Shown here: piece by piece, positions 1,075 through 64,000 of the stretch
Numbering within the stretch: position 1 is the first letter of the stretch
How the letters are laid out: every line of letters begins with the position of its first letter
Virus record (IMG/VR): IMGVR_UViG_2778261457_000003
Coordinates: 2,217-66,216 of that record
Source of the DNA: a virus
Taxonomy: Duplodnaviria; Heunggongvirae; Uroviricota; Caudoviricetes
Strand: one strand, 5' to 3'
DNA: 64,000 nucleotides
Translations under genes and position numbers: made by a program
The notes under the pieces: model-generated
Told to the model about the DNA's origin: nothing
Database searches by the model: none
The model's input: the letters and a program-made list of their open reading frames with translations, nothing else

Positions 1075-2664
1075 TTACTTAATAAGCAGCGGTACGCCCT
1101 GGATACGACGGGCTACGCCAGTCGGGCAGCAGGCCCAGACTACTTCCCATTTATCGAATTCCGCCTGCGTAACTTTCAGCACATACGGTTCTGTACCGTC
1201 AGCATCAGGATCACGAGGAGCCACCAGAGCGCCGGAGGCGACAAAGCGATCTAAAAGTTTGGTCATCCCTTTAGTCAGGCCAGCCGCAGTAATACCGTCC
1301 GGGCTATGCTTCATCTGGCGGGCTAACTGGACAAAGAAACGGCTGATTGCATTCATCAGGGATGGGACGTGCTGGAAGTGCAGATAGTTATCCTGCGTGC
1401 AGCAAGTTAAAGCATCGTCGATGATCATCTGGCCAGAGGTGCCAACAGATACTTTATTGAGACGGCCCTTGACCATTGCTTCTTCGTCCGGGGTATCTTC
1501 CGGATACAGCGGTTGAATTGACGCACGAGCAATGACGGCACGTTCTTCACCAGCCGGTGAGTAATGCCAACCGCCGACATCAGAGTTTTTCTTGACGCCA
1601 CGAGCTTTCGCCGCGTACGCCACGCCAGACAGACCAAAGACCACACGGGATTGGGTCCATTTGTCTTTGCAGGAGAACGGGTAGTGATAGACAGAACAGC
1701 TTACATAATCGGTACCAAGTAAACCGGTATCTTCAACAGCAGACAGCGCTTCCGTGTACGTCAATGTCGGTTTAACATCAAAGAAGCCATCAATCAGGCG
1801 ATCAGAACAGATATTACCTAACGCAGTGATCGCCGCATTGTCATAGCACCCCAGGCCGAGAACAGCGGTGTACATGTACGGCGCATTGTTCAGCACTTTC
1901 ACCGCACGCAGGTACGCAGCGGTTGAGATTTTCGACTGATCGCCGTTGGTACCGCCAGTGAACGCCAACGATTTTTTGTTTGTTACTTTCGCTGTCGAAA
2001 TCAGCTCTTCATTAACAACCGCGCGCAGATATTTAGAACGGGCTTCCAGAGCCGTAGGCAGATAACACAAGCGGCCCATGTCATCTTTCGCTTCTTCCGC
2101 CAAAGACACAGTGTGTGTCTCCAGGGTCGTTACCACGCCGAGCGAAGTCGTCTGGGTCAGTTTTAAGAGGAAGCGTTCATTACCCGCGCTGTCCGCTGTT
2201 GCCGTTTCGATGGTTAACTCACGGGTAGGTGAAATACACGGATCACCATCATCAACGTAGATAGCAAAGGCTTCGCCACTATCAAGTTCAATTTCAGAAC
2301 CGTATGGCAACGCACTGTAAGCCGGTTCGCCTGATTCATCGAACATAATAATCGGGAACTTCGCATCATCCGGAACAGCGCGAACAACATAACCAGATGT
2401 TTGCTGAATAGCTTCGTATACATGGCGAATTGGTTCGAACTGTGAGCCGGAAGACGGCTTCAGCGGTTCGCCGAGAACATCTTCGTAATTGGACTCAGTA
2501 ACCGCAAGAACAGTAAACGGCTTGCCACGCGCAAATACGCCAATACCAGCCCACAAGCTGCTATTTAATGCAACACCGGTAGATAACGTCGCATCGGCAT
2601 TGATCGGGCTAACCGCGACGCCGGATGCATTACCTAATGACTGTTGAATTGAATATTGAGACAT
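1075..2664 (-). CDS. contractile tail sheath protein (P1 gp22-like)
   Basis: 529-aa ORF, size and position between head gene and gene-21-like ORF; assignment rests on recalled P1 gene order 23-22-21. Confidence 0.55.
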   Translation of the reverse strand: MSQYSIQQSLGNASGVAVSPINADATLSTGVALNSSLWAGIGVFARGKPFTVLAVTESNYEDVLGEPLKPSSGSQFEPIRHVYEAIQQTSGYVVRAVPDDAKFPIIMFDESGEPAYSALPYGSEIELDSGEAFAIYVDDGDPCISPTRELTIETATADSAGNERFLLKLTQTTSLGVVTTLETHTVSLAEEAKDDMGRLCYLPTALEARSKYLRAVVNEELISTAKVTNKKSLAFTGGTNGDQSKISTAAYLRAVKVLNNAPYMYTAVLGLGCYDNAAITALGNICSDRLIDGFFDVKPTLTYTEALSAVEDTGLLGTDYVSCSVYHYPFSCKDKWTQSRVVFGLSGVAYAAKARGVKKNSDVGGWHYSPAGEERAVIARASIQPLYPEDTPDEEAMVKGRLNKVSVGTSGQMIIDDALTCCTQDNYLHFQHVPSLMNAISRFFVQLARQMKHSPDGITAAGLTKGMTKLLDRFVASGALVAPRDPDADGTEPYVLKVTQAEFDKWEVVWACCPTGVARRIQGVPLLIK

Positions 2665-43492: not shown

Positions 43493-43921
43493 ATGAAAAC
43501 AATCGAACAAAAACTTGAACAGCGCCGCGAGTGGCAGAAGGCAGCCAGAGAACGAGCGATCGCTCGGCAACGGGAAAAGTTGGCTGACCCAGCCTGGCGA
43601 GAATCGCAATATCAGAAAATGCGGGATTCTATCGACCGCCGTATCGCTAAACAGAAAGAGCGCCCACCAGCCAGCAAAACGCGGAAAAGTGCGGTAAAGA
43701 TAAAATCTCGTGGCTTGAAGGGGCGAACATCGACAGCGGAGGAACGGAGCATCGCCAATGCTCTTGGCGCTCTCCCCTGCATTGCCTGCTACATGCATGG
43801 AGTAATATCTGAAGAGGTATCTCTGCACCATATCTCCGGTCGTACCGCGCCGGGTTGTCACAAAAAGCAATTGCCCCTTTGTAGATGGCACCACCAGCAT
43901 GCAGCACCGGCTGAAGTAAGA
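43493..43921 (+). pseudogene. ref: ref (HNH-type recombination enhancement endonuclease), 5' fragment interrupted by a Tn3-family insertion
   Basis: MKTIEQKLEQRREWQKAARERAIARQ ... HHISGRTAPG ... RWHHQHAAPAEV then frame runs into the transposon IR at 43922. Confidence 0.8.
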
Positions 43922-43959
43922 GGGGTCTGACGCTCAGTGGAACGAAAACTCACGTTAAG
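43922..43959. repeat. Tn3 terminal inverted repeat (bla-proximal end)
   Basis: exact 38-bp IR. Confidence 0.95.
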
Positions 43960-44068
43960 GGATTTTGGTCATGAGATTATCAAAAAGGATCTTCACCTAG
44001 ATCCTTTTAAATTAAAAATGAAGTTTTAAATCAATCTAAAGTATATATGAGTAAACTTGGTCTGACAG

Positions 44069-44941
<873 letters not shown>

Positions 44942-45111
44942 TCAATATTATTGAAGCATTTACCAGGGTTATTGTCTCATGAGCGGATACATATTTGAAT
45001 GTATTTAGAAAAATAAACAAATAGGGGTTCCGCGCACATTTCCCCGAAAAGTGCCACCTGACGTCTAAGAAACCATTATTATCATGACATTAACCTATAA
45101 AAATAGGCGTA

Positions 45112-45832
<721 letters not shown>

Positions 45833-48800
45833 ATGCCCGTTGACTTTCTGACCACTGAGCAGACTGAAAGCTATGGCAGATTCACCGGTGAACCGGATGA
45901 GCTTCAGCTGGCACGATATTTTCACCTTGATGAAGCAGACAAGGAATTTATCGGAAAAAGCAGAGGTGATCACAACCGTCTGGGCATTGCCCTGCAAATT
46001 GGATGTGTCCGTTTTCTGGGCACCTTCCTCACCGATATGAATCATATTCCTTCCGGCGTCCGGCATTTTACCGCCAGACAGCTCGGGATTCGTGATATCA
46101 CCGTTCTTGCAGAATACGGTCAGAGGGAAAATACCCGCCGTGAGCATGCAGCGCTGATACGTCAGCACTATCAGTATCGTGAATTTGCCTGGCCCTGGAC
46201 ATTTCGCCTTACCCGTCTTTTATATACCCGGAGCTGGATAAGCAACGAACGTCCTGGCCTGCTTTTCGATCTGGCGACAGGGTGGCTTATGCAACATCGT
46301 ATTATTCTCCCCGGAGCCACTACGCTGACCCGGTTGATTTCAGAGGTAAGGGAAAAGGCGACGTTGCGCCTGTGGAACAAACTGGCACTGATACCGTCAG
46401 CCGAACAGCGTTCACAGCTGGAGATGCTGCTGGGGCCAACTGATTGCAGCCGCCTGTCTTTACTGGAATCACTGAAAAAGGGCCCTGTGACCATCAGTGG
46501 TCCGGCGTTTAATGAAGCAATTGAACGCTGGAAAACTCTGAACGATTTTGGCCTGCATGCTGAAAACCTGAGTACACTCCCGGCTGTGCGCCTGAAAAAT
46601 CTCGCACGTTATGCTGGTATGACTTCGGTGTTCAATATTGCCAGGATGTCACCGCAGAAAAGGATGGCGGTTCTGGTTGCCTTTGTCCTTGCATGGGAAA
46701 CGCTGGCGCTGGATGATGCATTGGACGTTCTGGACGCCATGCTGGCCGTTATCATCCGTGACGCCAGAAAGATTGGGCAGAAAAAACGGCTCCGCTCGCT
46801 GAAGGATCTGGATAAATCTGCATTGGCGCTCGCCAGCGCATGTTCGTACCTGCTGAAAGAAGAAACACCGGACGAATCGATTCGTGCTGAGGTGTTCAGC
46901 TACATCCCAAGGCAAAAGCTGGCTGAAATCATCACGCTTGTCCGTGAAATTGCCCGGCCCTCAGACGATAATTTTCATGAAGAAATGGTGGAGCAGTACG
47001 GGCGCGTTCGTCGTTTCCTGCCCCATCTGCTGAATACCGTTAAATTTTCATCCGCACCTGCCGGGGTTACCACTCTGAATGCCTGTGACTACCTCAGCCG
47101 GGAGTTCAGCTCACGGCGGCAGTTTTTTGACGACGCACCAACGGAAATTATCAGTCGGTCATGGAAACGGCTGGTGATTAACAAGGAAAAACATATCACC
47201 CGCAGGGGATACACGCTCTGCTTTCTCAGTAAACTGCAGGATAGTCTGAGGCGGAGGGATGTCTACGTTACCGGCAGTAACCGGTGGGGAGATCCTCGTG
47301 CAAGATTACTACAGGGTGCTGACTGGCAGGCAAACCGGATTAAGGTTTATCGTTCTTTGGGGCACCCGACAGACCCGCAGGAAGCAATAAAATCTCTGGG
47401 TCATCAGCTTGATAGTCGTTACAGACAGGTTGCTGCACGTCTTTGCGAAAATGAGGCTGTCGAACTCGATGTTTCTGGCCCGAAGCCCCGGTTGACAATT
47501 TCTCCCCTCGCCAGTCTTGATGAGCCGGACAGTCTGAAACGACTGAGCAAAATGATCAGTGATCTACTCCCTCCGGTGGATTTAACGGAGTTGCTGCTCG
47601 AAATTAACGCCCATACCGGATTTGCTGATGAGTTTTTCCATGCTAGTGAAGCCAGTGCCAGAGTTGATGATCTGCCCGTCAGCATCAGCGCCGTGCTGAT
47701 GGCTGAAGCCTGCAATATCGGTCTGGAACCACTGATCAGATCAAATGTTCCTGCACTGACCCGACACCGGCTGAACTGGACAAAAGCGAACTATCTGCGG
47801 GCTGAAACTATCACCAGCGCTAATGCCAGACTGGTTGATTTTCAGGCAACGCTGCCACTGGCACAGATATGGGGTGGAGGAGAAGTGGCATCTGCAGATG
47901 GAATGCGCTTTGTTACGCCAGTCAGAACAATCAATGCCGGACCGAACCGCAAATACTTTGGTAATAACAGAGGGATCACCTGGTACAACTTTGTGTCCGA
48001 TCAGTATTCCGGCTTTCATGGCATCGTTATACCGGGGACGCTGAGGGACTCTATCTTTGTGCTGGAAGGTCTTCTGGAACAGGAGACCGGGCTGAATCCA
48101 ACCGAAATTATGACCGATACAGCAGGTGCCAGCGAACTTGTCTTTGGCCTTTTCTGGCTGCTGGGATACCAGTTTTCTCCACGCCTGGCTGATGCCGGTG
48201 CTTCGGTTTTCTGGCGAATGGACCATGATGCCGACTATGGCGTGCTGAATGATATTGCCAGAGGGCAATCAGATCCCCGAAAAATAGTCCTTCAGTGGGA
48301 CGAAATGATCCGGACCGCTGGCTCCCTGAAGCTGGGCAAAGTACAGGTTTCAGTGCTGGTCCGTTCATTGCTGAAAAGTGAACGTCCTTCCGGACTGACT
48401 CAGGCAATCATTGAAGTGGGGCGCATCAACAAAACGCTGTATCTGCTTAATTATATTGATGATGAAGATTACCGCCGGCGCATTCTGACCCAGCTTAATC
48501 GGGGAGAAAGTCGCCATGCCGTTGCCAGAGCCATCTGTCACGGTCAAAAAGGTGAGATAAGAAAACGATATACCGACGGTCAGGAAGATCAACTGGGCAC
48601 ACTGGGGCTGGTCACTAACGCCGTCGTGTTATGGAACACTATTTATATGCAGGCAGCCCTGGATCATCTCCGGGCGCAGGGTGAAACACTGAATGATGAA
48701 GATATCGCACGCCTCTCCCCGCTTTGCCACGGACATATCAATATGCTCGGCCATTATTCCTTCACGCTGGCAGAACTGGTGACCAAAGGACATCTGAGAC

Positions 48801-48838
48801 CATTAAAAGAGGCGTCAGAGGCAGAAAACGTTGCTTAA
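45833..48838 (+). CDS. tnpA: Tn3 transposase
   Basis: 1001 aa from MPVDFLTTEQTESYGRF; 3' end runs into the terminal IR; ORF-track start at 45674 is an upstream extension. Confidence 0.95.
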   Translation: MPVDFLTTEQTESYGRFTGEPDELQLARYFHLDEADKEFIGKSRGDHNRLGIALQIGCVRFLGTFLTDMNHIPSGVRHFTARQLGIRDITVLAEYGQRENTRREHAALIRQHYQYREFAWPWTFRLTRLLYTRSWISNERPGLLFDLATGWLMQHRIILPGATTLTRLISEVREKATLRLWNKLALIPSAEQRSQLEMLLGPTDCSRLSLLESLKKGPVTISGPAFNEAIERWKTLNDFGLHAENLSTLPAVRLKNLARYAGMTSVFNIARMSPQKRMAVLVAFVLAWETLALDDALDVLDAMLAVIIRDARKIGQKKRLRSLKDLDKSALALASACSYLLKEETPDESIRAEVFSYIPRQKLAEIITLVREIARPSDDNFHEEMVEQYGRVRRFLPHLLNTVKFSSAPAGVTTLNACDYLSREFSSRRQFFDDAPTEIISRSWKRLVINKEKHITRRGYTLCFLSKLQDSLRRRDVYVTGSNRWGDPRARLLQGADWQANRIKVYRSLGHPTDPQEAIKSLGHQLDSRYRQVAARLCENEAVELDVSGPKPRLTISPLASLDEPDSLKRLSKMISDLLPPVDLTELLLEINAHTGFADEFFHASEASARVDDLPVSISAVLMAEACNIGLEPLIRSNVPALTRHRLNWTKANYLRAETITSANARLVDFQATLPLAQIWGGGEVASADGMRFVTPVRTINAGPNRKYFGNNRGITWYNFVSDQYSGFHGIVIPGTLRDSIFVLEGLLEQETGLNPTEIMTDTAGASELVFGLFWLLGYQFSPRLADAGASVFWRMDHDADYGVLNDIARGQSDPRKIVLQWDEMIRTAGSLKLGKVQVSVLVRSLLKSERPSGLTQAIIEVGRINKTLYLLNYIDDEDYRRRILTQLNRGESRHAVARAICHGQKGEIRKRYTDGQEDQLGTLGLVTNAVVLWNTIYMQAALDHLRAQGETLNDEDIARLSPLCHGHINMLGHYSFTLAELVTKGHLRPLKEASEAENVA

Positions 48839-48871
48839 CGTGAGTTTTCGTTCCACTGAGCGTCAGACCCC
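48834..48871. repeat. Tn3 terminal inverted repeat (tnpA-proximal end)
   Basis: CTTAACGTGAGTTTTCGTTCCACTGAGCGTCAGACCCC. Confidence 0.95.
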
Positions 48872-49008
48872 TAAGAGAAAAATACCCCTGGCTGGTCCCT
48901 GTTCATGCCGATGGTGTGGTTGGAGGCAAGAAAGAATTCACCTTGCTGAACAAGTCAGAGATGGAGTTGCTGGCTGACGCCTATGAGATGGCAAACATCA
49001 TGCACTAA
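48872..49008 (+). pseudogene. ref: ref 3' fragment (continues the interrupted frame: VREKYPWLVPVHADGVVGGKKEFTLLNKSEMELLADAYEMANIMH)
   Basis: reading frame is restored across the TAAGA duplication. Confidence 0.8.
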
Positions 49009-49152
49009 TAAATATATTATTTTTAATCTGAAATAATTGACAACTGACAAGTGACTTCAGTCAGAATCATCACATGCCCGGTACGGATGGATCCCTTTTC
49101 AAATATTCCATGGACGGCACAGTCTGAGTACCGGGCGCTACCTTCAGTTGTA

Positions 49153-49182
49153 TTGCTAAGCCGCCGCTGGTGGCTTTTCTTT
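49153..49182 (+). terminator. rho-independent terminator (agccgccgctggtggctt + T-run)
   Basis: GC hairpin followed by ttttcttttttg. Confidence 0.5.
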
Positions 49183-49196
49183 TTTGTAGGGGCGCT

Positions 49197-49838
49197 ATGG
49201 ATAAGAAAATATGCGTTGTTTCGATGAGCGTCGGCAAACCGGCGTCAATGACTGCTGCATGGATCAACAACGAGCTGATAATGGCTGAGCGGACCAGCTA
49301 CCCTGAACGCCGCCGCGATATGGAACTCCAGCTGCTGCGCGAATTGCGAGAAAAAGAGGAAAAGGGTTTTATCGTGCTGGTGGAAGAGGAAAACAGCTTT
49401 ATTACTGGTCGAGTTGGCCAGCGTGTAAGGTTGCGCGATCCCTTCATGAACGGCAGGCCGGTACTAATTGAGGCAATGCAGATTTATAAGGAGCTGGAAC
49501 GCCAGAAAGCAATCAAGTTACCGCGCAAGGAATCCGGCAAATACATCCTCCACCAAAGCATCTTCGATTCCGAACACGATAAAAAAGGCGATGAATTTTT
49601 CAACATCAACTGGAGCGAAATAACGACAGAGCATGTTCTGACGTTACTATGTTGCTTTGCGACGGAATACAACAACGTTGCCAGCGCCGACTACATCAGG
49701 GCAATGGCTTGTGAAGTGGATAGTCGTGATGACTCATCGCTGATAGCGTCATATATAAACATCATCAAGAAAACTCAAATTATGGGATGCGCTAGAGTTC
49801 CTCAAGGAATACTCACCGGAAAGAATAATATTCTATAA
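49197..49838 (+). CDS. mat: hypothetical protein at the position of P1 mat (particle maturation)
   Basis: ORF from MDKKICVVSM with RBS; assignment by position only. Confidence 0.4.
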   Translation: MDKKICVVSMSVGKPASMTAAWINNELIMAERTSYPERRRDMELQLLRELREKEEKGFIVLVEEENSFITGRVGQRVRLRDPFMNGRPVLIEAMQIYKELERQKAIKLPRKESGKYILHQSIFDSEHDKKGDEFFNINWSEITTEHVLTLLCCFATEYNNVASADYIRAMACEVDSRDDSSLIASYINIIKKTQIMGCARVPQGILTGKNNIL

Positions 49839-49886
49839 CCTACGAAGGTTATTTGTTACTTTCTGCGTAAACCCACAACTCACCTT

Positions 49887-49906
49887 CCTAAGTTAAGGAA
49901 GGTATT
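49887..49906. terminator. bidirectional hairpin (ccttcc-taagttaa-ggaagg) between convergent mat and the 346-aa gene
   Basis: 6-bp perfect stem with T-rich flank. Confidence 0.4.
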
Positions 49907-49935
49907 TATCATGAAGTTTAGACATAAGCGTATTA

Positions 49936-50976
49936 TTACATGGGATTAACCACAACCTTTCCATATATATCAAGTTTTGATTGTAATACGTTGAGGTGAG
50001 ACAATTCTTTATTCGAACTAACTTTATCTAAAATTATATTTTTATCTTTTTCAGTCATGTTATACCCTAAGGTAATTTGCTTGAATGCAGAAAAAGGAAT
50101 TTTCTTTAAGTTAATTTCATGATAGTCATGAAAAACATCAGGATACTCATTTAATAGGCAATCATCAATCGATGGAGAGACAATGCTTCCTATTTTTCTC
50201 TCGCAATCAGCCAATGGAAAAATAATTCTACTTTCATTTTCAGGAAGCCACTCTTCACCTTTTGTATAAAGAAGCCTATTAATAAAAAGCTCGCGAACTG
50301 AATCTCGATTTAAGATCCCATGCAATGTATTATCTTTATTCTTTATATCTATATTCCTCGATGGCGCAGGATAGCCATTAAATCGCACAGCGCCTTTATA
50401 ATAGGTTACAGATGCTCTATCTTCTGGATTATAACTAACATCACACGGCCGATATATTTTGAAAAAATCGTGTGTTTCATCGAAAACTACAGCAAACCCC
50501 TTTCCTATCGATGCATAATGAGTCCACATGTGTAGATTGCAATCACTTTTTGATAGAGAGAACACACCAAGATGACAGCTTACGGCTTCTACTAAATAAT
50601 CGTTAAGGTACGTTACTATTTCTTGGAGTTTAGATTCATCATATGAATCCATTGAGGTAAAACCTTCATTGATTAACAAGTGTGGAAAATCCTCTCCGTA
50701 TCGTTTCCCGCAAGGTTTTAAATAATACTCTAACTCTTGTATAGATGGGACATAAGATGGATCTCGTTGCATTTTCTTAAATTCATTTCTAGCCCATGCG
50801 TAATCGGCTGGTGAAAATTTATTAAAAAATGGAAGAAGTCGCGACTCACTCGACGGATCATTAAGATACTTTGGTTGCGTTGCTCTAAAGAAACCATCCT
50901 CCAGACAAGATGTTCTAATGTGCATGCCCGGCCAAGGTTTATCCATATAACTCTCGCCTATATATTTAACTAACAC
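49936..50976 (-). CDS. AT-rich accessory gene, DUF2971-like (LHMWTHYASIGKGFAVVFDE motif); candidate single-gene anti-phage defence or abortive-infection protein
   Basis: 346-aa ORF (GTG start at 50976 or ATG at 50946); GC content visibly far below flanking DNA; own hairpins on both sides; occupies the slot between mat and lxc. Confidence 0.6.
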   Translation of the reverse strand: MLVKYIGESYMDKPWPGMHIRTSCLEDGFFRATQPKYLNDPSSESRLLPFFNKFSPADYAWARNEFKKMQRDPSYVPSIQELEYYLKPCGKRYGEDFPHLLINEGFTSMDSYDESKLQEIVTYLNDYLVEAVSCHLGVFSLSKSDCNLHMWTHYASIGKGFAVVFDETHDFFKIYRPCDVSYNPEDRASVTYYKGAVRFNGYPAPSRNIDIKNKDNTLHGILNRDSVRELFINRLLYTKGEEWLPENESRIIFPLADCERKIGSIVSPSIDDCLLNEYPDVFHDYHEINLKKIPFSAFKQITLGYNMTEKDKNIILDKVSSNKELSHLNVLQSKLDIYGKVVVNPM

Positions 50977-51002
50977 TGTATATCGATCCTGTTGTTTAAG
51001 CC

Positions 51003-51022
51003 CATATCATATGGGCTTTAAA
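51003..51022 (-). terminator. hairpin (gcccatatgatatgggc) after lxc
   Basis: palindromic stem-loop directly downstream of the lxc stop on the minus strand. Confidence 0.4.
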
Positions 51023-51028
51023 TGATTA

Positions 51029-51277
51029 TTAATCAGCATTCAGAAGCAATGCGTTATCTATGATGATCTGCTCCCATTCTTCGAATGCCCGATCGCGGAC
51101 ACCTTGGGGAACACTGTTAGTTTTGAAATCGACGACCGTCCGCCATTTCCCGTCCGGGCGGTACATGCGCAGAGCTTTACTTCCCCCTTCCCTGCGCACC
51201 TCAACGTTATGCTTGTCAGCAAACTCTTGTAATGCTCGTAGCGTCCCATGCTTTACTGTGTAGTATCGCTTTTTCAA
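51029..51277 (-). CDS. lxc: Lxc/Bof-like C1 co-repressor modulator (82 aa)
   Basis: 82-aa basic protein downstream of darB operon; size and position match P1 bof/lxc as recalled. Confidence 0.5.
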   Translation of the reverse strand: MKKRYYTVKHGTLRALQEFADKHNVEVRREGGSKALRMYRPDGKWRTVVDFKTNSVPQGVRDRAFEEWEQIIIDNALLLNAD

Positions 51278-51714
51278 GTTTTCTCTCCAGCCTGTGCTAA
51301 GGCTTCAACTTCCAAATCGTAAGACTCAAACTCATAGTCCTGGTCGTCAACCTCTTCAGGTACTGGCAGTAAATGCCAGGCTGAGTATATCTGACCATTA
51401 TCAAAACGCTCCTGGCTGTAGAGCGTCGCGGCTATGAGCGTCAGCGCCGGGCGGTCATAACGGTAAATTTTGCGAACGTCACGGTCAACGAGACGACCGA
51501 AATTACCATAACCGCGCTCCAGTAATAATTTTTTAATTTCCGGCCAGTATGGACCATAGCTGCGGTACAGGCGGGGATTTTTCAGTAATCGCCCGCGTAG
51601 CCCTGACAGGAAGAAATCAACGTATTCGTCTTCTGTCTTTCCTAACAACGCTGTACGGAGTACCGCCTCAAGATATGTTTTATTCGGTTTTATTGTATCA
51701 GATAGTGTGGCCAT
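51274..51714 (-). CDS. ulx: hypothetical protein between darB and lxc
   Basis: 146-aa ORF, ATGA-type overlap with lxc. Confidence 0.45.
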   Translation of the reverse strand: MATLSDTIKPNKTYLEAVLRTALLGKTEDEYVDFFLSGLRGRLLKNPRLYRSYGPYWPEIKKLLLERGYGNFGRLVDRDVRKIYRYDRPALTLIAATLYSQERFDNGQIYSAWHLLPVPEEVDDQDYEFESYDLEVEALAQAGEKT

Positions 51715-51747
51715 ATTATGCGACGCCCGGCGAACCGGGCGCTCCTG

Positions 51748-54700
51748 TTATGCGTATTGTTGGATGACGGCCAGAACGTCCGCCACGTTGTGTTTTGTCT
51801 CGATAATCCACCAGTTACCCGGGAAATCGCTGTTCTTCGCCTTCGCTGGCAGCCAGCGAGCGCCGAATTTCGCCTTGATTGCGTCTTTCGCACGGAAAAG
51901 AACGCCTTTCATGCCTGAGGCTTCCTGAAGCCCAAATACCTCGCCAGCGGCGAATTTTGGTGCGTACATCATCTTCAGGTCGGCGGTGGATACGCGATAA
52001 TTCAGACCAAGAGACTGAGCTATGCTGGTGGCATCACCCTGTATTGATGATAACTCTTCTTGTTTCTCGTTTCTGGCGGCAATCTCTTCCTCCGTGATGT
52101 TGCCAAGGGCCAGGTTTATCCGATCAGCGTCGGCCTGTTTCTCTTCATCGGTGCGCCCGGCAAGAACCGTGTTAATTCTCTGCAATATCTCCACATGATT
52201 CTTGCGCATGCTGAGCAATTCCGGCGTAACCTCGTTAAGATCCACCAGCCCAAGGATGGCAAGGTCGGAAAACATTGATACCAGGTTGTAGGTCATGCGA
52301 TAGCTGAGTTGACCATAGGCTGATGGCAACTTCACCGCATCCATTTGATAGGCATCCATAAATTTAGAGCCGTCGTTTACGACATCCGCTATTGCAGGTG
52401 TGATTTTCCCTGTGGTGGCGGCCTCCCTGATTGCTGTTACCCACGATTGAGTCAGCGCGGCGACTGCATGATTCAGATTGGCTTCCCGTTCTGCTGCGAT
52501 GCGCGCGCTTGCTGCGTCCATTGCCTGCTTGATCTCGGCTTTATTGCTGTAAATGCCAATGGTGCCAAACTGTGCTGTGGTGATCTCATAATCTGACGCC
52601 CGGAACTCATTGGTACCGAAAATGGCATTGGTGACTTCAAGTTCAGAATCCCCGTTACGAGTAGCCCCCTGGCTTGTTTTTTCCGGCATTCTGGCGATCG
52701 CATCCGCTATTTTCTCCTGAATTGCTTCAGGGGATAGCGTATCTCCGTATGACGCGATTACATCGCCATAATTGGAGCCAAACAATTCAACCAGGAATGT
52801 TTCTGCCGAACGGATCTGGCGGTTATTCCCTTCCGACATCATACCAAGCACCCATTTTGCAATTGACGACTTCAGCGCGCCGTCACGGCGATCCGGGTAA
52901 ACCGCATGCTTCAGTGGGTCCGTATAGGTACCAACAAAATCAATGCTATAGCCTGACTCTGTAGTCTGAACGCCGTATGAGTCAGTGATTTTGATCATGC
53001 CGCGCTGCTGGAAACGGTAGAAATCGTCACAGGAAATGATGTCGTTAATCCCGGCGATGGAGACGCCACCACTGATTTTCTGCATAACAGCATCTTCATC
53101 GGGAGTTACATCAACCTGTTTATCCAGCGTCTTCACATCCCAGTTACCCGATTTGGTGCCTTTGAAGGTAAAGATGATCTCCACGTCTGCGCGCTGGCTG
53201 TCGAAGTCCAGCGACTTAATGCGAACGATATCACCGGCACAATCATAGTATTGGCCTACACGCCATGAGCGATCGCCGATAACAAGGAACTCATTCGCAT
53301 GGTTAACCAGATCAGGATCAACATCCAGAATGCCTTTATTTATTGCATCCTCCACCAGCGGGCGCAGGCGTTTGATATCCGTCGCGGCCTTCTGAGTACG
53401 GTTCAATAATTTCTCATAGCGGGAGATGGCCTGAGAGATATTAGCCTTGCGCTGAATGGCGCTTTTCAACGACGCGCGATACTGTGCTAACAACATACGG
53501 TCTGTGTGATGGACGCTACCCCAGCGGGCTTTCCAGTCTGCGTTATCAGCTGCTTTGGCCATTACCGCCTGTTTGAATTTAGCTACCTCGGCGGTGGTCT
53601 TTTCAAGTTCCGCTTTGCTTCGCTCTAATTCAGCGGTAAGTACCTCCACATCCTCGCCAGCTGCGTGCTGCGCCTTGATGTAGTTCTGAAGGTCGATAGT
53701 AGCCTGTTCTTTCTGGCGAGCGCGTTGCGCGGCTTTCGCCTTATCCATTTGAACCTGCATCATTGCCAGACGTTCGCCATCATCCTTAGCGGTATACATC
53801 TGCATTTCGATCATATCGTTGGCGTCGGCGTTCTCCATTTCAGACTTATCTGAGCGGAGGATATCGGAGATCCAGCCTGCTTTACGCTTCAGCGTCTTCA
53901 GTCGGTATTCATCGAAAGAACCCTTGCCGCAGTAGTAGTGAACGCGAACGCTTGCACGGTTGGAACCAACTCGGGCACCGCGACCGTTACGCTGTGCGAT
54001 ACTGGCTGGTGTCCATGGCAACGTCAGATGATGGATGTCAGTCGTTCCTCGATGCAGGTTGATACCCACCTCTGCCTTTTTGTTGCAGATGATGATCGGA
54101 GTCCGGCCCTCCTGGAAGTCGGCAGCAATCTTTTCCAGCCCGCCCAGCGACATTTCATTTTGCTGCGCGATATAGGCGTCATACAGAGCCATTTGCTCGT
54201 TGTATTTCGCTATCTGTGCATCTGTTGGTTCATCCGGTAACTCTTTCGGCGGTTTAACCGCTTTCAGTTTCTTACCGGTTTTACCTGCCTCGGCAACCGT
54301 CTGAGCATTCAGGATCCCCACCTTTGAAGGTTCAAGGTTAAGAGCATTGCAGATAATGCGCTTGAGCTTCTGGTGCTGCGTTTTTTCATCGGTGAAGATG
54401 ATTTGCTTACCTTCCGGGAAAAACTCCTTCAGCGTGGCGATCAGCTTCGCGTATTTTGGTGTAACGGGGTGAGTTACGGTCTGTTCGTCAATGCCAAACC
54501 TGGCCAGGCGCTTATTCACTTCCTGCTCGAACGCTTCCGGAACCTGCAACTGAATAAACTCGCCCTTATCTATCAGGGAGTATTGCGATTGCTGCGTGAT
54601 TGAATCATCACTGTCGTCGTCTTCGCTGGTGGCTTGTTTAGGCAAACTGTCCGCCAGCTGCTGCACCGCATCGGCGTACTCCGGCAGGAAACGATAGGTG

Positions 54701-57700
54701 ATCCGGCGATAGTACAGGTCCATGTCAGTACATACGCGGTCCATATCCCTGATTATTGAGAAGATCGGACGGGCTTTCTCGTGCTCAATCACGCCGTCTT
54801 CATTGACCGAGGTCGTTACGCCATTGTTGGCTTTGGCTGCCGCTTCCGCCTGCTGACGCAATTCTTCATACGCCGCCAGTTGTTCTTCAGTAAGTGGCGC
54901 ATCCTGCTGGTGTTCGTCCAGCTCCGGGATCTCCACGGTATCCTTAACGTCTTCCGCTGTTTTAAGCGTTGTCCAGCGATGGAATATGCCGCGCAGCGCA
55001 TCAAGGTTTTCAAAGCCCACCAGCGCCATTTTTTCTTCAACTTCACCGCTGATTTTCTGTACCGTTTCCAGCCTGGTCTTGCCGAAGAATTTAACGAAGT
55101 CATCAGGACCGTAGATCCCCATCTTCTGCCAGTATTCTTTCGGCAGAACATGAGAAAGCATGTTGTATGCATCGATCGGGGTGTTAACGACTGGCGTTGC
55201 AGTCAGGAGAACCGGTCCGCGCCCGCCATTCTTTTTCATCAGGTACGCGTTTTTGATTGCCATATCTCGCGCCGATTGCGCCACCGCGCTGGTGGGCAGA
55301 TAGGCCAGCTGTGACGCTTCGCGACCATTTTTATAGCTATTGCGGTAGTTGTGGCCTTCGTCGGCGATCACGCTGTCGAAGCCCATATCCTCAAAGTACG
55401 GATACTTCTCTGCTTTTTCGGTACCGGTATCTGAATACTCCGACAATACCCGGCGACGCGCCGCCTCTTTGCGATGGGAATCGGAATCCATTGCGCTGGC
55501 TACGCGCCCGGCGGCAACGAAGTCATAAAGCATATCCTGTGCATGCTCATCTACGGTGTCATCACGTAGCGGAATGCGGGCGTATTGTTCTTTGGTAAAC
55601 ACGACTGCACGGTAATTTGAGTGCGGGATCGCATTCATCCGCGCCGTGATAGTGGCTTCATCTGCCAGCTTAAGAGCATCGCGCATAACTGGAGTGCCAT
55701 CAGTACCAAGAACAGGTTTACCGTTCTCATCGAGCACCGGCACCTGGCGAATCTGATCGCCATCCATCAGCACATCAAGACCGACGAACAGGTAGTTACT
55801 GAATGCCTCTTCACTCAGGAACTCTTTTGCTTCGTAATACCAGTTTTCCAGCACTGATTTAGGCACTACATAAGCAGTACGGGTGGAGCGACCGTTCTCA
55901 TAGTTGAACGCCTCAAGCGCCAGCGCGGTCGTGGTTTTACCCAGCCCGGTGCCGAAGCCCAGGATGCCGCGCCCATCTTCGGACAGTCGGCGCACCTCGC
56001 TATTCTGGTAATCAAATGGCTGGCGCTTACCGCTTAATCCCTTCAACCCAAGCGGATCGCCAGAGTGTTCATACGGGATATTGCTATTGAACACATCGTT
56101 GTATTTGGCAACCAGCTCATCGTAGCGATCGTGCGTCTTGATCCACTTATTGAACTGGTCCTCAAGCAGTGCCATCTGCTCGCGGTAGCCGTTCGCCGTC
56201 GCGCTATCTTTGCCACCGATACGCGCACCATTGAGATACTTTTCCAGCTGTGCCGGGAACCCGGTCGCGTTTTCACCTGATTTACGGTCCCACTCGTAGC
56301 GGATCTCGCCTGTTTCTTTATCCTTGCGCTGGACGACACCGTATCGGTGCCCGACGAACAGACCATCACCACCGTGATAGGTGTCAGAAACCATTTCGTC
56401 GCCTTCCAGCTGCACTGACTGCACATAGCGCAGATCCGGATAGCCGTTTTCCTGCAAAAATTCCAGAATGACGGAACGGTCGAACCAACGGCTATTGAGC
56501 TTAAACCGGATATTCTCTGCTGGCGTCTTGATGCGCTTCTCTTCGATCGCTGCCAGCTGATTAAGGACGTTGTTCTTTACTGGACCGTCGGTGAGCGTGG
56601 CGAGGAATTCCTGTTTTGGAGCCACTATCTCGTTAATGTCGCCGCTGGTGGCGCGGGCGAACGGAACAATCCCGCCATACGGTGAAACCGCAATGCCAGG
56701 GGTGCTGGCCAATAAATTAAGCAACTCGTCATCACTGGCTGGCAGTTCGCCGGTAAACGCAAGGCGGAAATCATCGAGCTGGATTGGATCGCGAGTGAGA
56801 TCACTGTAGAGATAACGCAGGGTGTCCTGATAGCTGGTGGAGTCATAACTGGCGCTGGAATCATGCGTAACCAGTTTTCCTGTCAGCTCGTCAGAAATAG
56901 TGCCATCCAGCTTAATTGCACCACGGAAAGCAAACCAGGCGCGCGCACCGCTTCCCGATAATTTAGCTATCGGACCGCGACCGGGGTTACCAAAACGGTC
57001 AATCTCTGCCTGCAAACGGGATACCAGAGAAAGGCGCTGCTGTTCGATTTGTTCAGCACTATGCCCGGCGGCCTTCATATCCTGATATTCAATTAACATC
57101 CGGCCAATCATCGCCCCGCGATACAAGCGTTCACGGTATTTTTCAGGCTGGCTGTTAATCCAGTCCACCAGCTGCACCATATCGTCGCTGATTGATGTGG
57201 TGTACTTATCGCGGACATTTGCCATCTGGGTAAATGTCATACCGAGACGGCCTTCTGTTGTAGTCAGGTTACGCTGAAGAGCCTCCCAGCTGTCCGCGCC
57301 ATAACTGGCAACATCAATCTTCAGCTCCTTCCCGGCATCAGATTCAATCCAGCGACCACCAGCATATTTTTGCCATACGCCATTAATCAGGCGCATTTCC
57401 CCTTCATCAACAACATCTGCGGTCGGTGACGGTTCAGCCATATCGAGCAAATACCAGTCGATACGGCTTTCGAAACAATGAATCAGCTTCGCTTTAAGAG
57501 CCTGGTTATCAATCTGACCGTCGGCACGAACCTCAATACGCCCCTGGAAGCCCTTTTCCTGGGTGCCATGAACAAACCGGCGGCCGTCCTTTTCAAACCA
57601 CTTGCCAGAAATAAACGTTGGCCAAAGCACATTTGCCGATTCGAGAGTGCTTTCATGCACCAGGGGGATTTTCTCAGCCATCTCTGCCGGATGTTTGCGC

Positions 57701-58515
57701 ATCAGCACCACATCAACGACTGTACTGGTCCCGTTTGCGTCAAAAGTACCGGTAGGCAAGCGGTGAGCGCCAAGAAATTCAGCTTTACGGGATAAGCGCA
57801 GGCGTAACCGCTTCATGTTTGAACCTGAAACAATGGACGGCGGCACAATCACACACATGAATCCGCCAGGTTTTATCTTGTCCAGCATGCGGAGCATGAA
57901 GTAAGACCCCATGTCCGTTTCTTCTGCGTAAGGCTTATCGATGTTGCGTGTGTTATCACGACCGCCGAACGGAACGTTACCCACAACATGGTCGAATGAA
58001 TCGTTAGGCGTGCTTACAGCCAGTTGTTCGAACGGGGAAATCTGTACGCTGTCTTCCGGATGTAACAGCTGGTTTATACGACCGGAAACACTGCTGATCT
58101 CAGTCGCGGTCATCACCGTACCAACCGGTTTTGTCTCATTAAAAACGCCGGTGCCCGCCGATGGTTCCAGAGTGTTACCTACGTCCGCGCCGTAGAGCTT
58201 CATGATCTCCCAGACACCTTCAGCGATCGGCTTTGGTGTGTAATATTCGGAGACGGACCCGCCAATGCCGCCTTCACCGGTGTACCCAGCCAGGATCTGG
58301 CGCTGTTCATCTGTCAGTGTCGCGCCGTCCACCAGCGAATTAAGCAAATCTATCGCCTTCTGATTCGCCTCCCGGCGCAGTCGGTCATAGCTTTTGCCTT
58401 CCACCTTTTCCACGCCGTATTTAATCGGCGCTCGGTGAGATGTTATTGCCCTAATGTATTTCAATATTTCGCTGACACTTGAACAGCGAAACACCCCCAT
58501 AGATAGCTTGTTCAT
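51748..58515 (-). CDS. darB: DarB-like giant antirestriction protein with N6-adenine methyltransferase-like and DExH/SF2 helicase domains
   Basis: 2255 aa; helicase Walker A GFGTGLGKTT and motif II VIADEGHNYRN; MTase-like GNVPFG segment near N-terminus. Confidence 0.8.
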   Translation of the reverse strand: MNKLSMGVFRCSSVSEILKYIRAITSHRAPIKYGVEKVEGKSYDRLRREANQKAIDLLNSLVDGATLTDEQRQILAGYTGEGGIGGSVSEYYTPKPIAEGVWEIMKLYGADVGNTLEPSAGTGVFNETKPVGTVMTATEISSVSGRINQLLHPEDSVQISPFEQLAVSTPNDSFDHVVGNVPFGGRDNTRNIDKPYAEETDMGSYFMLRMLDKIKPGGFMCVIVPPSIVSGSNMKRLRLRLSRKAEFLGAHRLPTGTFDANGTSTVVDVVLMRKHPAEMAEKIPLVHESTLESANVLWPTFISGKWFEKDGRRFVHGTQEKGFQGRIEVRADGQIDNQALKAKLIHCFESRIDWYLLDMAEPSPTADVVDEGEMRLINGVWQKYAGGRWIESDAGKELKIDVASYGADSWEALQRNLTTTEGRLGMTFTQMANVRDKYTTSISDDMVQLVDWINSQPEKYRERLYRGAMIGRMLIEYQDMKAAGHSAEQIEQQRLSLVSRLQAEIDRFGNPGRGPIAKLSGSGARAWFAFRGAIKLDGTISDELTGKLVTHDSSASYDSTSYQDTLRYLYSDLTRDPIQLDDFRLAFTGELPASDDELLNLLASTPGIAVSPYGGIVPFARATSGDINEIVAPKQEFLATLTDGPVKNNVLNQLAAIEEKRIKTPAENIRFKLNSRWFDRSVILEFLQENGYPDLRYVQSVQLEGDEMVSDTYHGGDGLFVGHRYGVVQRKDKETGEIRYEWDRKSGENATGFPAQLEKYLNGARIGGKDSATANGYREQMALLEDQFNKWIKTHDRYDELVAKYNDVFNSNIPYEHSGDPLGLKGLSGKRQPFDYQNSEVRRLSEDGRGILGFGTGLGKTTTALALEAFNYENGRSTRTAYVVPKSVLENWYYEAKEFLSEEAFSNYLFVGLDVLMDGDQIRQVPVLDENGKPVLGTDGTPVMRDALKLADEATITARMNAIPHSNYRAVVFTKEQYARIPLRDDTVDEHAQDMLYDFVAAGRVASAMDSDSHRKEAARRRVLSEYSDTGTEKAEKYPYFEDMGFDSVIADEGHNYRNSYKNGREASQLAYLPTSAVAQSARDMAIKNAYLMKKNGGRGPVLLTATPVVNTPIDAYNMLSHVLPKEYWQKMGIYGPDDFVKFFGKTRLETVQKISGEVEEKMALVGFENLDALRGIFHRWTTLKTAEDVKDTVEIPELDEHQQDAPLTEEQLAAYEELRQQAEAAAKANNGVTTSVNEDGVIEHEKARPIFSIIRDMDRVCTDMDLYYRRITYRFLPEYADAVQQLADSLPKQATSEDDDSDDSITQQSQYSLIDKGEFIQLQVPEAFEQEVNKRLARFGIDEQTVTHPVTPKYAKLIATLKEFFPEGKQIIFTDEKTQHQKLKRIICNALNLEPSKVGILNAQTVAEAGKTGKKLKAVKPPKELPDEPTDAQIAKYNEQMALYDAYIAQQNEMSLGGLEKIAADFQEGRTPIIICNKKAEVGINLHRGTTDIHHLTLPWTPASIAQRNGRGARVGSNRASVRVHYYCGKGSFDEYRLKTLKRKAGWISDILRSDKSEMENADANDMIEMQMYTAKDDGERLAMMQVQMDKAKAAQRARQKEQATIDLQNYIKAQHAAGEDVEVLTAELERSKAELEKTTAEVAKFKQAVMAKAADNADWKARWGSVHHTDRMLLAQYRASLKSAIQRKANISQAISRYEKLLNRTQKAATDIKRLRPLVEDAINKGILDVDPDLVNHANEFLVIGDRSWRVGQYYDCAGDIVRIKSLDFDSQRADVEIIFTFKGTKSGNWDVKTLDKQVDVTPDEDAVMQKISGGVSIAGINDIISCDDFYRFQQRGMIKITDSYGVQTTESGYSIDFVGTYTDPLKHAVYPDRRDGALKSSIAKWVLGMMSEGNNRQIRSAETFLVELFGSNYGDVIASYGDTLSPEAIQEKIADAIARMPEKTSQGATRNGDSELEVTNAIFGTNEFRASDYEITTAQFGTIGIYSNKAEIKQAMDAASARIAAEREANLNHAVAALTQSWVTAIREAATTGKITPAIADVVNDGSKFMDAYQMDAVKLPSAYGQLSYRMTYNLVSMFSDLAILGLVDLNEVTPELLSMRKNHVEILQRINTVLAGRTDEEKQADADRINLALGNITEEEIAARNEKQEELSSIQGDATSIAQSLGLNYRVSTADLKMMYAPKFAAGEVFGLQEASGMKGVLFRAKDAIKAKFGARWLPAKAKNSDFPGNWWIIETKHNVADVLAVIQQYA

Positions 58516-63810: not shown

Positions 63811-63904
63811 TTTTTACTAGAATAAAAAGGGGTGCCAGAGAGCACCCTGATAATACGAAATTAAAGGGAAATAAATTACATGAAGTGTAATTCTTTGCCC
63901 TCTG

Positions 63905-64000
63905 GGTAATGACTCAAACTTATTGATAGTGTTTTATGTTCAGATAATGCCCGATGACTTTGTCATGCAGCTCCACCGATTTTGAGAACGACAGCGACTT
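63905..64000 (-). mobile_element. IS1, terminal ~95 bp only (element continues beyond window end)
   Basis: GGTAATGACTCAAACTTATTGATAGTGTTTTATGTTCAGATAATGCCCGATGACTTTGTCATGCAGCTCCACCGATTTTGAGAACGACAGCGACTT matches the IS1 end as recalled (one mismatch). Confidence 0.85.

Follow-up and report, generated by a model that had tools for sequence, protein, structure and literature searches.

The stretch of DNA studied here (the window) comprises 64,000 nucleotides (nt) of the Caudoviricetes record IMGVR_UViG_2778261457_000003 in IMG/VR (positions 2,217 to 66,216 of that record) and belongs to a P1-like phage-plasmid. Between mat and lxc, which together with the adjoining ulx and darB share 97–98% DNA identity with P1, P7, RCS47, and SJ46, the sole open reading frame (ORF) of note is a DUF2971 gene encoding 346 amino acids (aa), carried on what we call the cassette (Table 1). 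A preliminary description made from the sequence alone had reported a single ORF of this length here, in an AT-rich segment with hairpins on both sides and close to the darB antirestriction operon, and all of these features were recovered. The ulx-darB operon (51274..58515) lies beyond lxc, upstream of both lxc and the DUF2971 gene and in the same orientation.

Table 1. Features of the mat–lxc region in the window, alternative contents of the same interval in sister elements, and homologues read in their genomic context.
Feature	Sequence	Coordinates	Strand	Basis or context
mat	window	49197..49838	+	annotated Mat in relatives
Conserved part of mat, codons 1–170, left homology arm	window	49197..49706	+	at least 97% nt identity
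Allele-specific mat 3' end, last ~42 codons and stop	window	49707..49838	+	alignment drop
Convergent mat/DUF2971 intergenic region with two hairpins	window	49835..49935	.	inverted repeat and RNA folding
DUF2971 / PDC-S31-type gene, 346 aa, GTG start	window	49936..50976	-	ORF between mat and lxc
Shine-Dalgarno-like AGGA, 10 nt 5' of GTG	window	50987..50990	-	read from sequence
Hairpin, 13-nt arms, without U tract, cassette-specific	window	50995..51021	-	inverted repeat, 92% complementary
lxc (bof), 82 aa, right homology arm	window	51029..51277	-	relatives' annotation: lxc / modulator protein
ulx, 146 aa	window	51274..51714	-	Ulx in P1 and relatives
darB, 2255 aa	window	51748..58515	-	DarB in P1 and relatives
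res, mod, and IS5 allele	reference P1	mat–lxc		
Empty allele, 39 bp from mat to lxc	RCS47			
RelA/SpoT (CapRel-type) allele, 373 aa	L004 (SJ46)	1452-2573		PADLOC PDC-S33, 7e-87
PIN allele, 316 aa	L005 (JL22, pF1273-3)	1382-2332		PADLOC PDC-S34
Two-gene module allele		mat–lxc		includes a helix-turn-helix protein
SIR2 allele, 434 aa		mat–lxc		
GNAT, YaaC, and type III restriction-modification alleles		mat–lxc		
Salmonella homologue	L014	8001-9050	opposite	P2-like prophage, gpV-gpS slot
Enterobacter homologue	L024	7001-8047	opposite	P2-like prophage, gpV-gpS slot
Raoultella homologue	L025	7001-8032		adjoins P4-type delta and psu
Serratia homologue				prophage end by smpB, beside PDC-S64 match
Klebsiella homologue				chromosomal islet, beside HEC-04/AbiL-type ATPase
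Second Klebsiella homologue				AlpA/H-NS island
Vibrio homologue				conjugative plasmid, beside PIN_12 gene
Shewanella homologue				context uninformative

The cassette is foreign in composition. Its GC (guanine plus cytosine) content is 0.354, and that of third codon positions in the ORF (GC3) is 0.28. In a GC profile run along the window, segments of the same size that did not overlap the cassette averaged 0.487 (standard deviation 0.026, minimum 0.416), which places the cassette about five standard deviations under the mean and makes it the lowest of the 64 kb. The GTG start of the gene is supported by the near-invariance of the N-terminus MLVKY across 38 homologues, by the Shine-Dalgarno-like sequence upstream, and by three diverged alleles that keep the same codon. 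RefSeq lengths differ between NZ_CP124473.1 and NZ_AP025206.2, with 346 aa from the GTG in one of the two and 336 aa from an internal ATG in the other, an ATG that PGAP also picks elsewhere; the GTG is intact in both. Diverged alleles have kept an unbroken ORF, and the most distant of them differs at 10 synonymous and four non-synonymous positions.

The cassette-specific hairpin at 50995–51021 comes after the lxc stop and ahead of the DUF2971 start, folds weakly (z −1.7), and fills most of the 52 nt that separate the two genes. Two further hairpins (49835–49852 and 49882–49903, the latter with 8-nt arms) occupy the gap in which mat and the DUF2971 gene converge; there the minus-strand RNA has a minimum free energy of −32 kcal/mol (z −4.9; 0 of 200 shuffles equally stable) and the plus strand carries a terminator-like site. 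Because no Rfam family matched in a scan of 49000–51800, we read this structured region as a terminator, likely a bidirectional one serving both genes. The window also contains the C1 repressor gene, and with up to three mismatches allowed the C1-operator consensus occurs at 16 sites against 0.25 expected by chance; none of these is within 49000–51300, and hence none is in the cassette. Given the short gap after lxc, the lack of a detectable promoter, and the lack of a C1 operator in the cassette, the simplest reading is that transcription from the lxc promoters, which are annotated in P1, would continue into the DUF2971 gene and so express it in the lysogen. The geometry of the P1 promoter P2mod was also carried over to the DUF2971 allele and was rejected because the resulting hexamers were poor.

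On the mat side, the exchanged segment reaches further than the start at 49840 given in the preliminary description. Compared with RCS47, SJ46, JL22, the SIR2 and PIN plasmids, and P1, codons 1–170 of mat stay at 97% nt identity or more in almost every 30-nt block. From alignment column ~510 onward, the mat tail falls to 37–77% identity with other alleles and is 100% identical only to that of another DUF2971-allele plasmid. At the corresponding position, ~49707, megablast matches of the flank stop and GC content begins to fall. On the lxc side, six alleles agree in every base to the end of lxc and part immediately after its stop codon, where each has a hairpin of its own. Because the mat tail is allele-specific and divergence sets in exactly after the lxc stop, the swapped module extends from about 49707, inside mat, to 51028, and the cassette, as judged from these alignments, is exchanged through homology in mat and lxc. 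The mat-side junction of the DUF2971 allele is 130 nt deeper inside mat than those of the res-mod, RelA/SpoT (CapRel), SIR2, and empty alleles. These four have a Mat tail type in common, whereas the PIN, two-gene, and DUF2971 alleles each have a separate tail. Functional coupling of the Mat tail to the cassette was considered and rejected, as one tail spans four different alleles including the empty one, and variable crossover points explain the tails better.

The mat–lxc site has been published as the variable region RD-1 (PMC6906374; PMC10865808), and neither paper mentions DUF2971. The gene of the window lies between the conserved mat and lxc, and sister elements have other contents at the same place. 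Reference P1 itself carries res, mod, and IS5 there, as the preliminary description had it, and not the DUF2971 gene; conversely, no res-mod ORFs were found in the interval of the window, and the P1 res-mod DNA does not match it. Comparison of the interval across P1-like elements bears out the variable locus that had been suspected, with cassettes swapped between conserved flanks, and judging from their sequences the alternative alleles are mostly defense or toxin-type genes. Three of the RD-1 alleles match near-consecutive PADLOC candidates (PDC-S31, PDC-S33, and PDC-S34), which suggests that these candidates may derive from the same kind of locus.

Flanks of this type were matched by 703 PLSDB records, and 85 of them carry the DUF2971 allele, called where a record covers at least 80% of the query. 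Among 60 evenly spaced records drawn from the 703, the allele was DUF2971 in eight, SIR2 in 10, RelA/SpoT in six, PIN in three, and GNAT in one; the slot was empty in three and of unknown content in one, in 27 the length of the insert kept the flank matches from being joined, and one record had only a fragmentary match to the mat-side flank. The cassette was present in 90 plasmid records (Escherichia 70, Salmonella 14, Shigella four, and Klebsiella two) and in 63 of 5426 complete E. coli genomes, where 64 of its 65 places were on plasmids.

Membership of the protein in DUF2971, proposed earlier from the motif LHMWTHYASIGKGFAVVFDE that begins at residue 148, was confirmed by a Pfam match above the gathering score (PF11185; 28.3 bits vs. 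22, E 4.8e-6) in which residues 150–251 cover model positions 1–89 of 89. The protein contains the DUF2971 signature MW-x-HYA...G...F and K...W..E-x-E-x-R. Residues M150, W151, Y154, G160, F165, K239, W243, E246, E248, and R250 are invariant in 39 sequences, and Y154, K239, W243, E248, and R250 remain so at 25–30% identity. The proposed association with defense was echoed by matches to hidden Markov models (HMMs) of the PADLOC candidate PDC-S31 (PDLC04994, 4e-16; PDLC04990, 2.2e-14; PDLC04991, 1.1e-10; PDLC04992, 4.9e-6), an assignment made from these E values and the single-gene architecture. PHROGs returned only phrog_1762 (8e-71), a family of unknown function, NCBIfam contained no model for the protein, and RefSeq annotates the gene as encoding a DUF2971 domain-containing protein.

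A protein database search returned 96 full-length relatives at 36–53% identity from genera including Klebsiella, Serratia, Salmonella, Enterobacter, Vibrio, and Shewanella. When the profile was run against 1.84 billion representatives, it matched 8339 clusters (at 50% identity) at E ≤ 1e-3 but only 39 at E ≤ 1e-30, so that the close subfamily of about 350 aa is small within a very large family. All 32 members of a broad alignment match PF11185, and since typical DUF2971 proteins of 300–315 aa align to the profile end to end, the C-terminal part is a feature of the family rather than a fused extra domain. The phage-plasmid SSU5 (JQ965645.1 / NC_018843.1, 32677–33273) encodes a DUF2971 protein of ~199 aa with 25–26% identity, and SSU5-like copies also occur in ~120 Klebsiella and Enterobacter plasmids of 107–130 kb; a second phage-plasmid lineage thus carries the family.

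Eight homologues were read in their genomic contexts, which are listed in Table 1. The slot occupied in the P2-like prophages is the site of the non-essential orf30 in P2. Near the Raoultella copy are a SymE toxin, a UvrD-type helicase, and a reverse-transcriptase gene. No partner gene recurs across the eight contexts. These neighborhoods depict the DUF2971 gene as a stand-alone unit that moves among accessory slots of mobile elements, and the copies at gpV-gpS and beside delta and psu place the same predicted effector family in accessory slots of P1, P2-like, and P4-like elements.

An AlphaFold (AF2) model built from 39 sequences (pLDDT 92, pTM 0.86) has a predicted fold that points to an ADP-ribosyltransferase (ART) and not to a nuclease. 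Scabin, LT, and pertussis toxin are among the lower-ranked matches of the fold comparison. The structural similarity to ARTs is remote, which limits this conclusion: Foldseek found no match at E ≤ 0.001 in either the PDB or the BFVD viral structures, and of two profiles run against PDB sequences, that of the close family matched nothing at E ≤ 10 and that of the broad family had only chance matches, to interferon-gamma receptor. Both fold-search programs also gave a weak, unexplained resemblance to tRNA-splicing-endonuclease subunits. These sub-threshold resemblances were the only hint of the nuclease that the preliminary description had offered as one option beside an abortive-infection system. 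With no nuclease family or fold recovered, the nuclease option was rejected.

The model offers a set of candidate catalytic residues. In ARTs, motifs I (H/R), II (Y or S-x-S), and III (E or E-x-E) are expected on strands 1, 2, and 5. In the 346-aa protein, R31 ends strand 29–31, S140-x-S142 lies on strand 136–142 and is followed by the MW-x-HY154 helix, and E246-x-E248 opens strand 248–254. The close family shows no variation at R31, S140, Y154, E246, or E248; the broad family shows none at Y154 or E248 and conserves R31 and E246 to at least 90%. We therefore regard R31, S140-x-S142/Y154, and E246-x-E248 as candidate ART motifs I, II, and III. Their positions agree with a published bioinformatic description of DUF2971 as ART-like by prediction, which assigns it a conserved tyrosine for motif II and ExE for motif III, notes sizable helical inserts, and likens it to DarT, AbiGi, and scabin (PMC12522546).

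The resemblance to DarT, which ADP-ribosylates thymidine in ssDNA and is the toxin of DarTG toxin-antitoxin systems, has clear bounds. No DarT model was matched by the protein in Pfam (E ≤ 1) or PADLOC (E ≤ 10), the protein differs from DarT by large helical inserts (residues 56–135 and 206–238) and an extra C-terminal unit, and the gene for the DarG macrodomain antitoxin, part of DarTG systems, is absent both beside the cassette gene and in the eight homologue contexts. Also comparable is Aristaios, a 316-aa DUF2971 protein encoded on the Lactococcus plasmid pUCCL641_199 (Grafakou et al., 2024; PMC11381338). Aristaios is a validated single-gene system with an abortive-infection-like phenotype that interferes with phage transcription, and its model is likewise ART-like (PMC11381338; PMC13064643). 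With this validated member and the published ART prediction, DUF2971 is no longer the uncharacterized family that the preliminary description took it to be. The two proteins have in common the DUF2971 domain, a predicted ART-like fold, the single-gene organization, and a mobile element as carrier, whereas the protein studied here has a Gram-negative host, a phage-plasmid as carrier, and 30 aa more. The phenotype of Aristaios was measured, while the 346-aa protein is known from its sequence and model; their relationship is probably remote, and a tblastn search of plasmids gave no Lactococcus match.

Other known systems can be compared through the locus. The DUF2971 gene shares the single-gene architecture of PDC-S31, and it shares its slot and flanks, as well as its accessory nature and low GC content, with EcoP1I res-mod and with the CapRel, SIR2, and PIN alleles, all of which are presumably expressed from the prophage to the benefit of the lysogen. 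It differs from EcoP1I res-mod in being one gene rather than two, with an unrelated protein and mechanism.

An anti-phage role of the 346-aa protein is likely, given its company at the hotspot, the contexts of its homologues, its conserved catalytic-type residues, and ORFs that stay intact through mostly synonymous change. In the specific form that we favor, and hold to be fairly probable, the RD-1 allele would be a self-contained, prophage-encoded, single-gene DUF2971 system of the ART type that acts against phages in an abortive-infection-like manner. The gene would be transcribed in the lysogen through read-through from the lxc promoters, and its product would be kept inactive until infection by a foreign phage. 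Once activated, the protein would draw on NAD+ and transfer ADP-ribose either to a nucleic acid or to part of the gene-expression machinery; R31, Y154, and E246-x-E248 would form its catalytic set. Phage development would then be blocked, and the P1-carrying population would be protected.

Several observations weigh against this proposal. A promoter scan 5' of the DUF2971 gene gave no consensus sigma-70 site, and the assignment of residues to ART motifs followed their position on strands, not a superposition. The PDC-S31 HMM matches span the protein only in part (e.g., residues 118–324), and PADLOC PDCs in general are mostly unvalidated (PMC12988326). A literature search for PDC-S31 found no mention; as PDC systems have been proposed computationally and lack published validation, belonging to one does not demonstrate a function. 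Nor does a survey of P1-like elements made with DefenseFinder list such a system or mention DUF2971.

Three other explanations of the gene were considered. A catalytically different or inactive DUF2971 protein, for instance a nucleic-acid-binding sensor or a scaffold in which the ART fold is a remnant, would be in keeping with the remoteness of the structural evidence for an ART, and the weak matches to tRNA-splicing-endonuclease subunits could mean an RNA-directed activity of the C-terminal part; we consider this unlikely. The gene could instead serve plasmid maintenance as an addiction toxin, or act as a superinfection-exclusion module against P1-like elements and not against phages in general. 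The fold does resemble toxin-type enzymes, res-mod at RD-1 has been discussed as aiding plasmid stability (PMC6906374), and the RelA/SpoT allele at RD-1 has effects on host fitness (PMC10865808). However, the cassette has no antitoxin-like partner ORF, no partner is conserved beside the homologues, and the same gene is found in integrated P2-like prophages, where an addiction module is unneeded; this explanation strikes us as rather improbable.

The position of the gene directly downstream of darB-ulx-lxc, in the same orientation, raises the possibility that it serves the phage itself, as an ART for host takeover or counter-defense comparable to T4 Alt, ModA, and ModB that is expressed with darB-ulx during infection. 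An ART-like predicted fold would suit such a role, and as no promoter of its own was found, the gene may share the transcription of the operon. Phage takeover makes no sense, however, in the non-phage contexts of the homologues (the islet with the AbiL/HEC-04 ATPase, the AlpA/H-NS island, and the conjugative plasmid). Sister elements place restriction-modification, CapRel-type, SIR2, and PIN genes in the same slot, the empty slot of the RCS47 type indicates that the P1 life cycle can proceed without the gene, and Aristaios, the sole DUF2971 member to have been tested, defends against phage. We accordingly give the phage-serving explanation little credence, and prefer the prophage-encoded anti-phage system set out above.

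The interpretation offered in the preliminary description is thus supported, and the finding is less novel than was assumed there, the hotspot having been published as RD-1. Also already known are the ART prediction for the family, one validated member, the PADLOC candidate model, and the RefSeq annotation. What appears to be undescribed in the literature that we searched is the DUF2971 allele of RD-1 as a defense candidate, its frequency and junctions, and the sharing of the family among P1, P2-like, and P4-like slots.

Elsewhere in the window, a 343-aa ORF has the length of Cre and no NCBIfam match. A Tn3-family transposon (43922–48871) with perfect 38-bp inverted repeats and a 5-bp duplication (TAAGA) at its ends interrupts ref, which starts at 43493 and whose 3' end is at 49008; it carries blaTEM (44069..44929, minus strand), a resolvase gene (45112..45705, minus strand), and tnpA (~45827..48838, plus strand). 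The end of the window (~63898–64000) matches IS1 in thousands of plasmids, and P1 has an IS1 in the same general region (RD-2).

Enterobacteriaceae from clinical and livestock sources commonly harbor P1-like phage-plasmids, and the element described here also carries blaTEM. As the cassette is present in ~12% of the P1-like phage-plasmids in PLSDB, it may shape which phages, including therapeutic ones, can infect their hosts. A broader proposition, which we put forward tentatively and think doubtful when taken as a whole, is that DUF2971 constitutes a very large unrecognized class of stand-alone, NAD+-dependent ARTs related to DarT. If so, these proteins would target nucleic acid, need no separate antitoxin, and restrain themselves until a phage cue arrives; in E. 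coli, Salmonella, and Shigella, the RD-1 allele would protect about one in eight P1-like lysogens from other phages, and the same effector would be traded between the hotspots of P1, P2, and P4. Despite the size of the family, one DUF2971 member, from Lactococcus, has been tested for its phenotype. The comparisons made here also show a single effector family that moves between accessory slots in P1, P2-like, and P4-like elements. With an E. coli member on an element amenable to genetics, the target, the trigger, and the silencing of a single-chain ART toxin could be tested directly.

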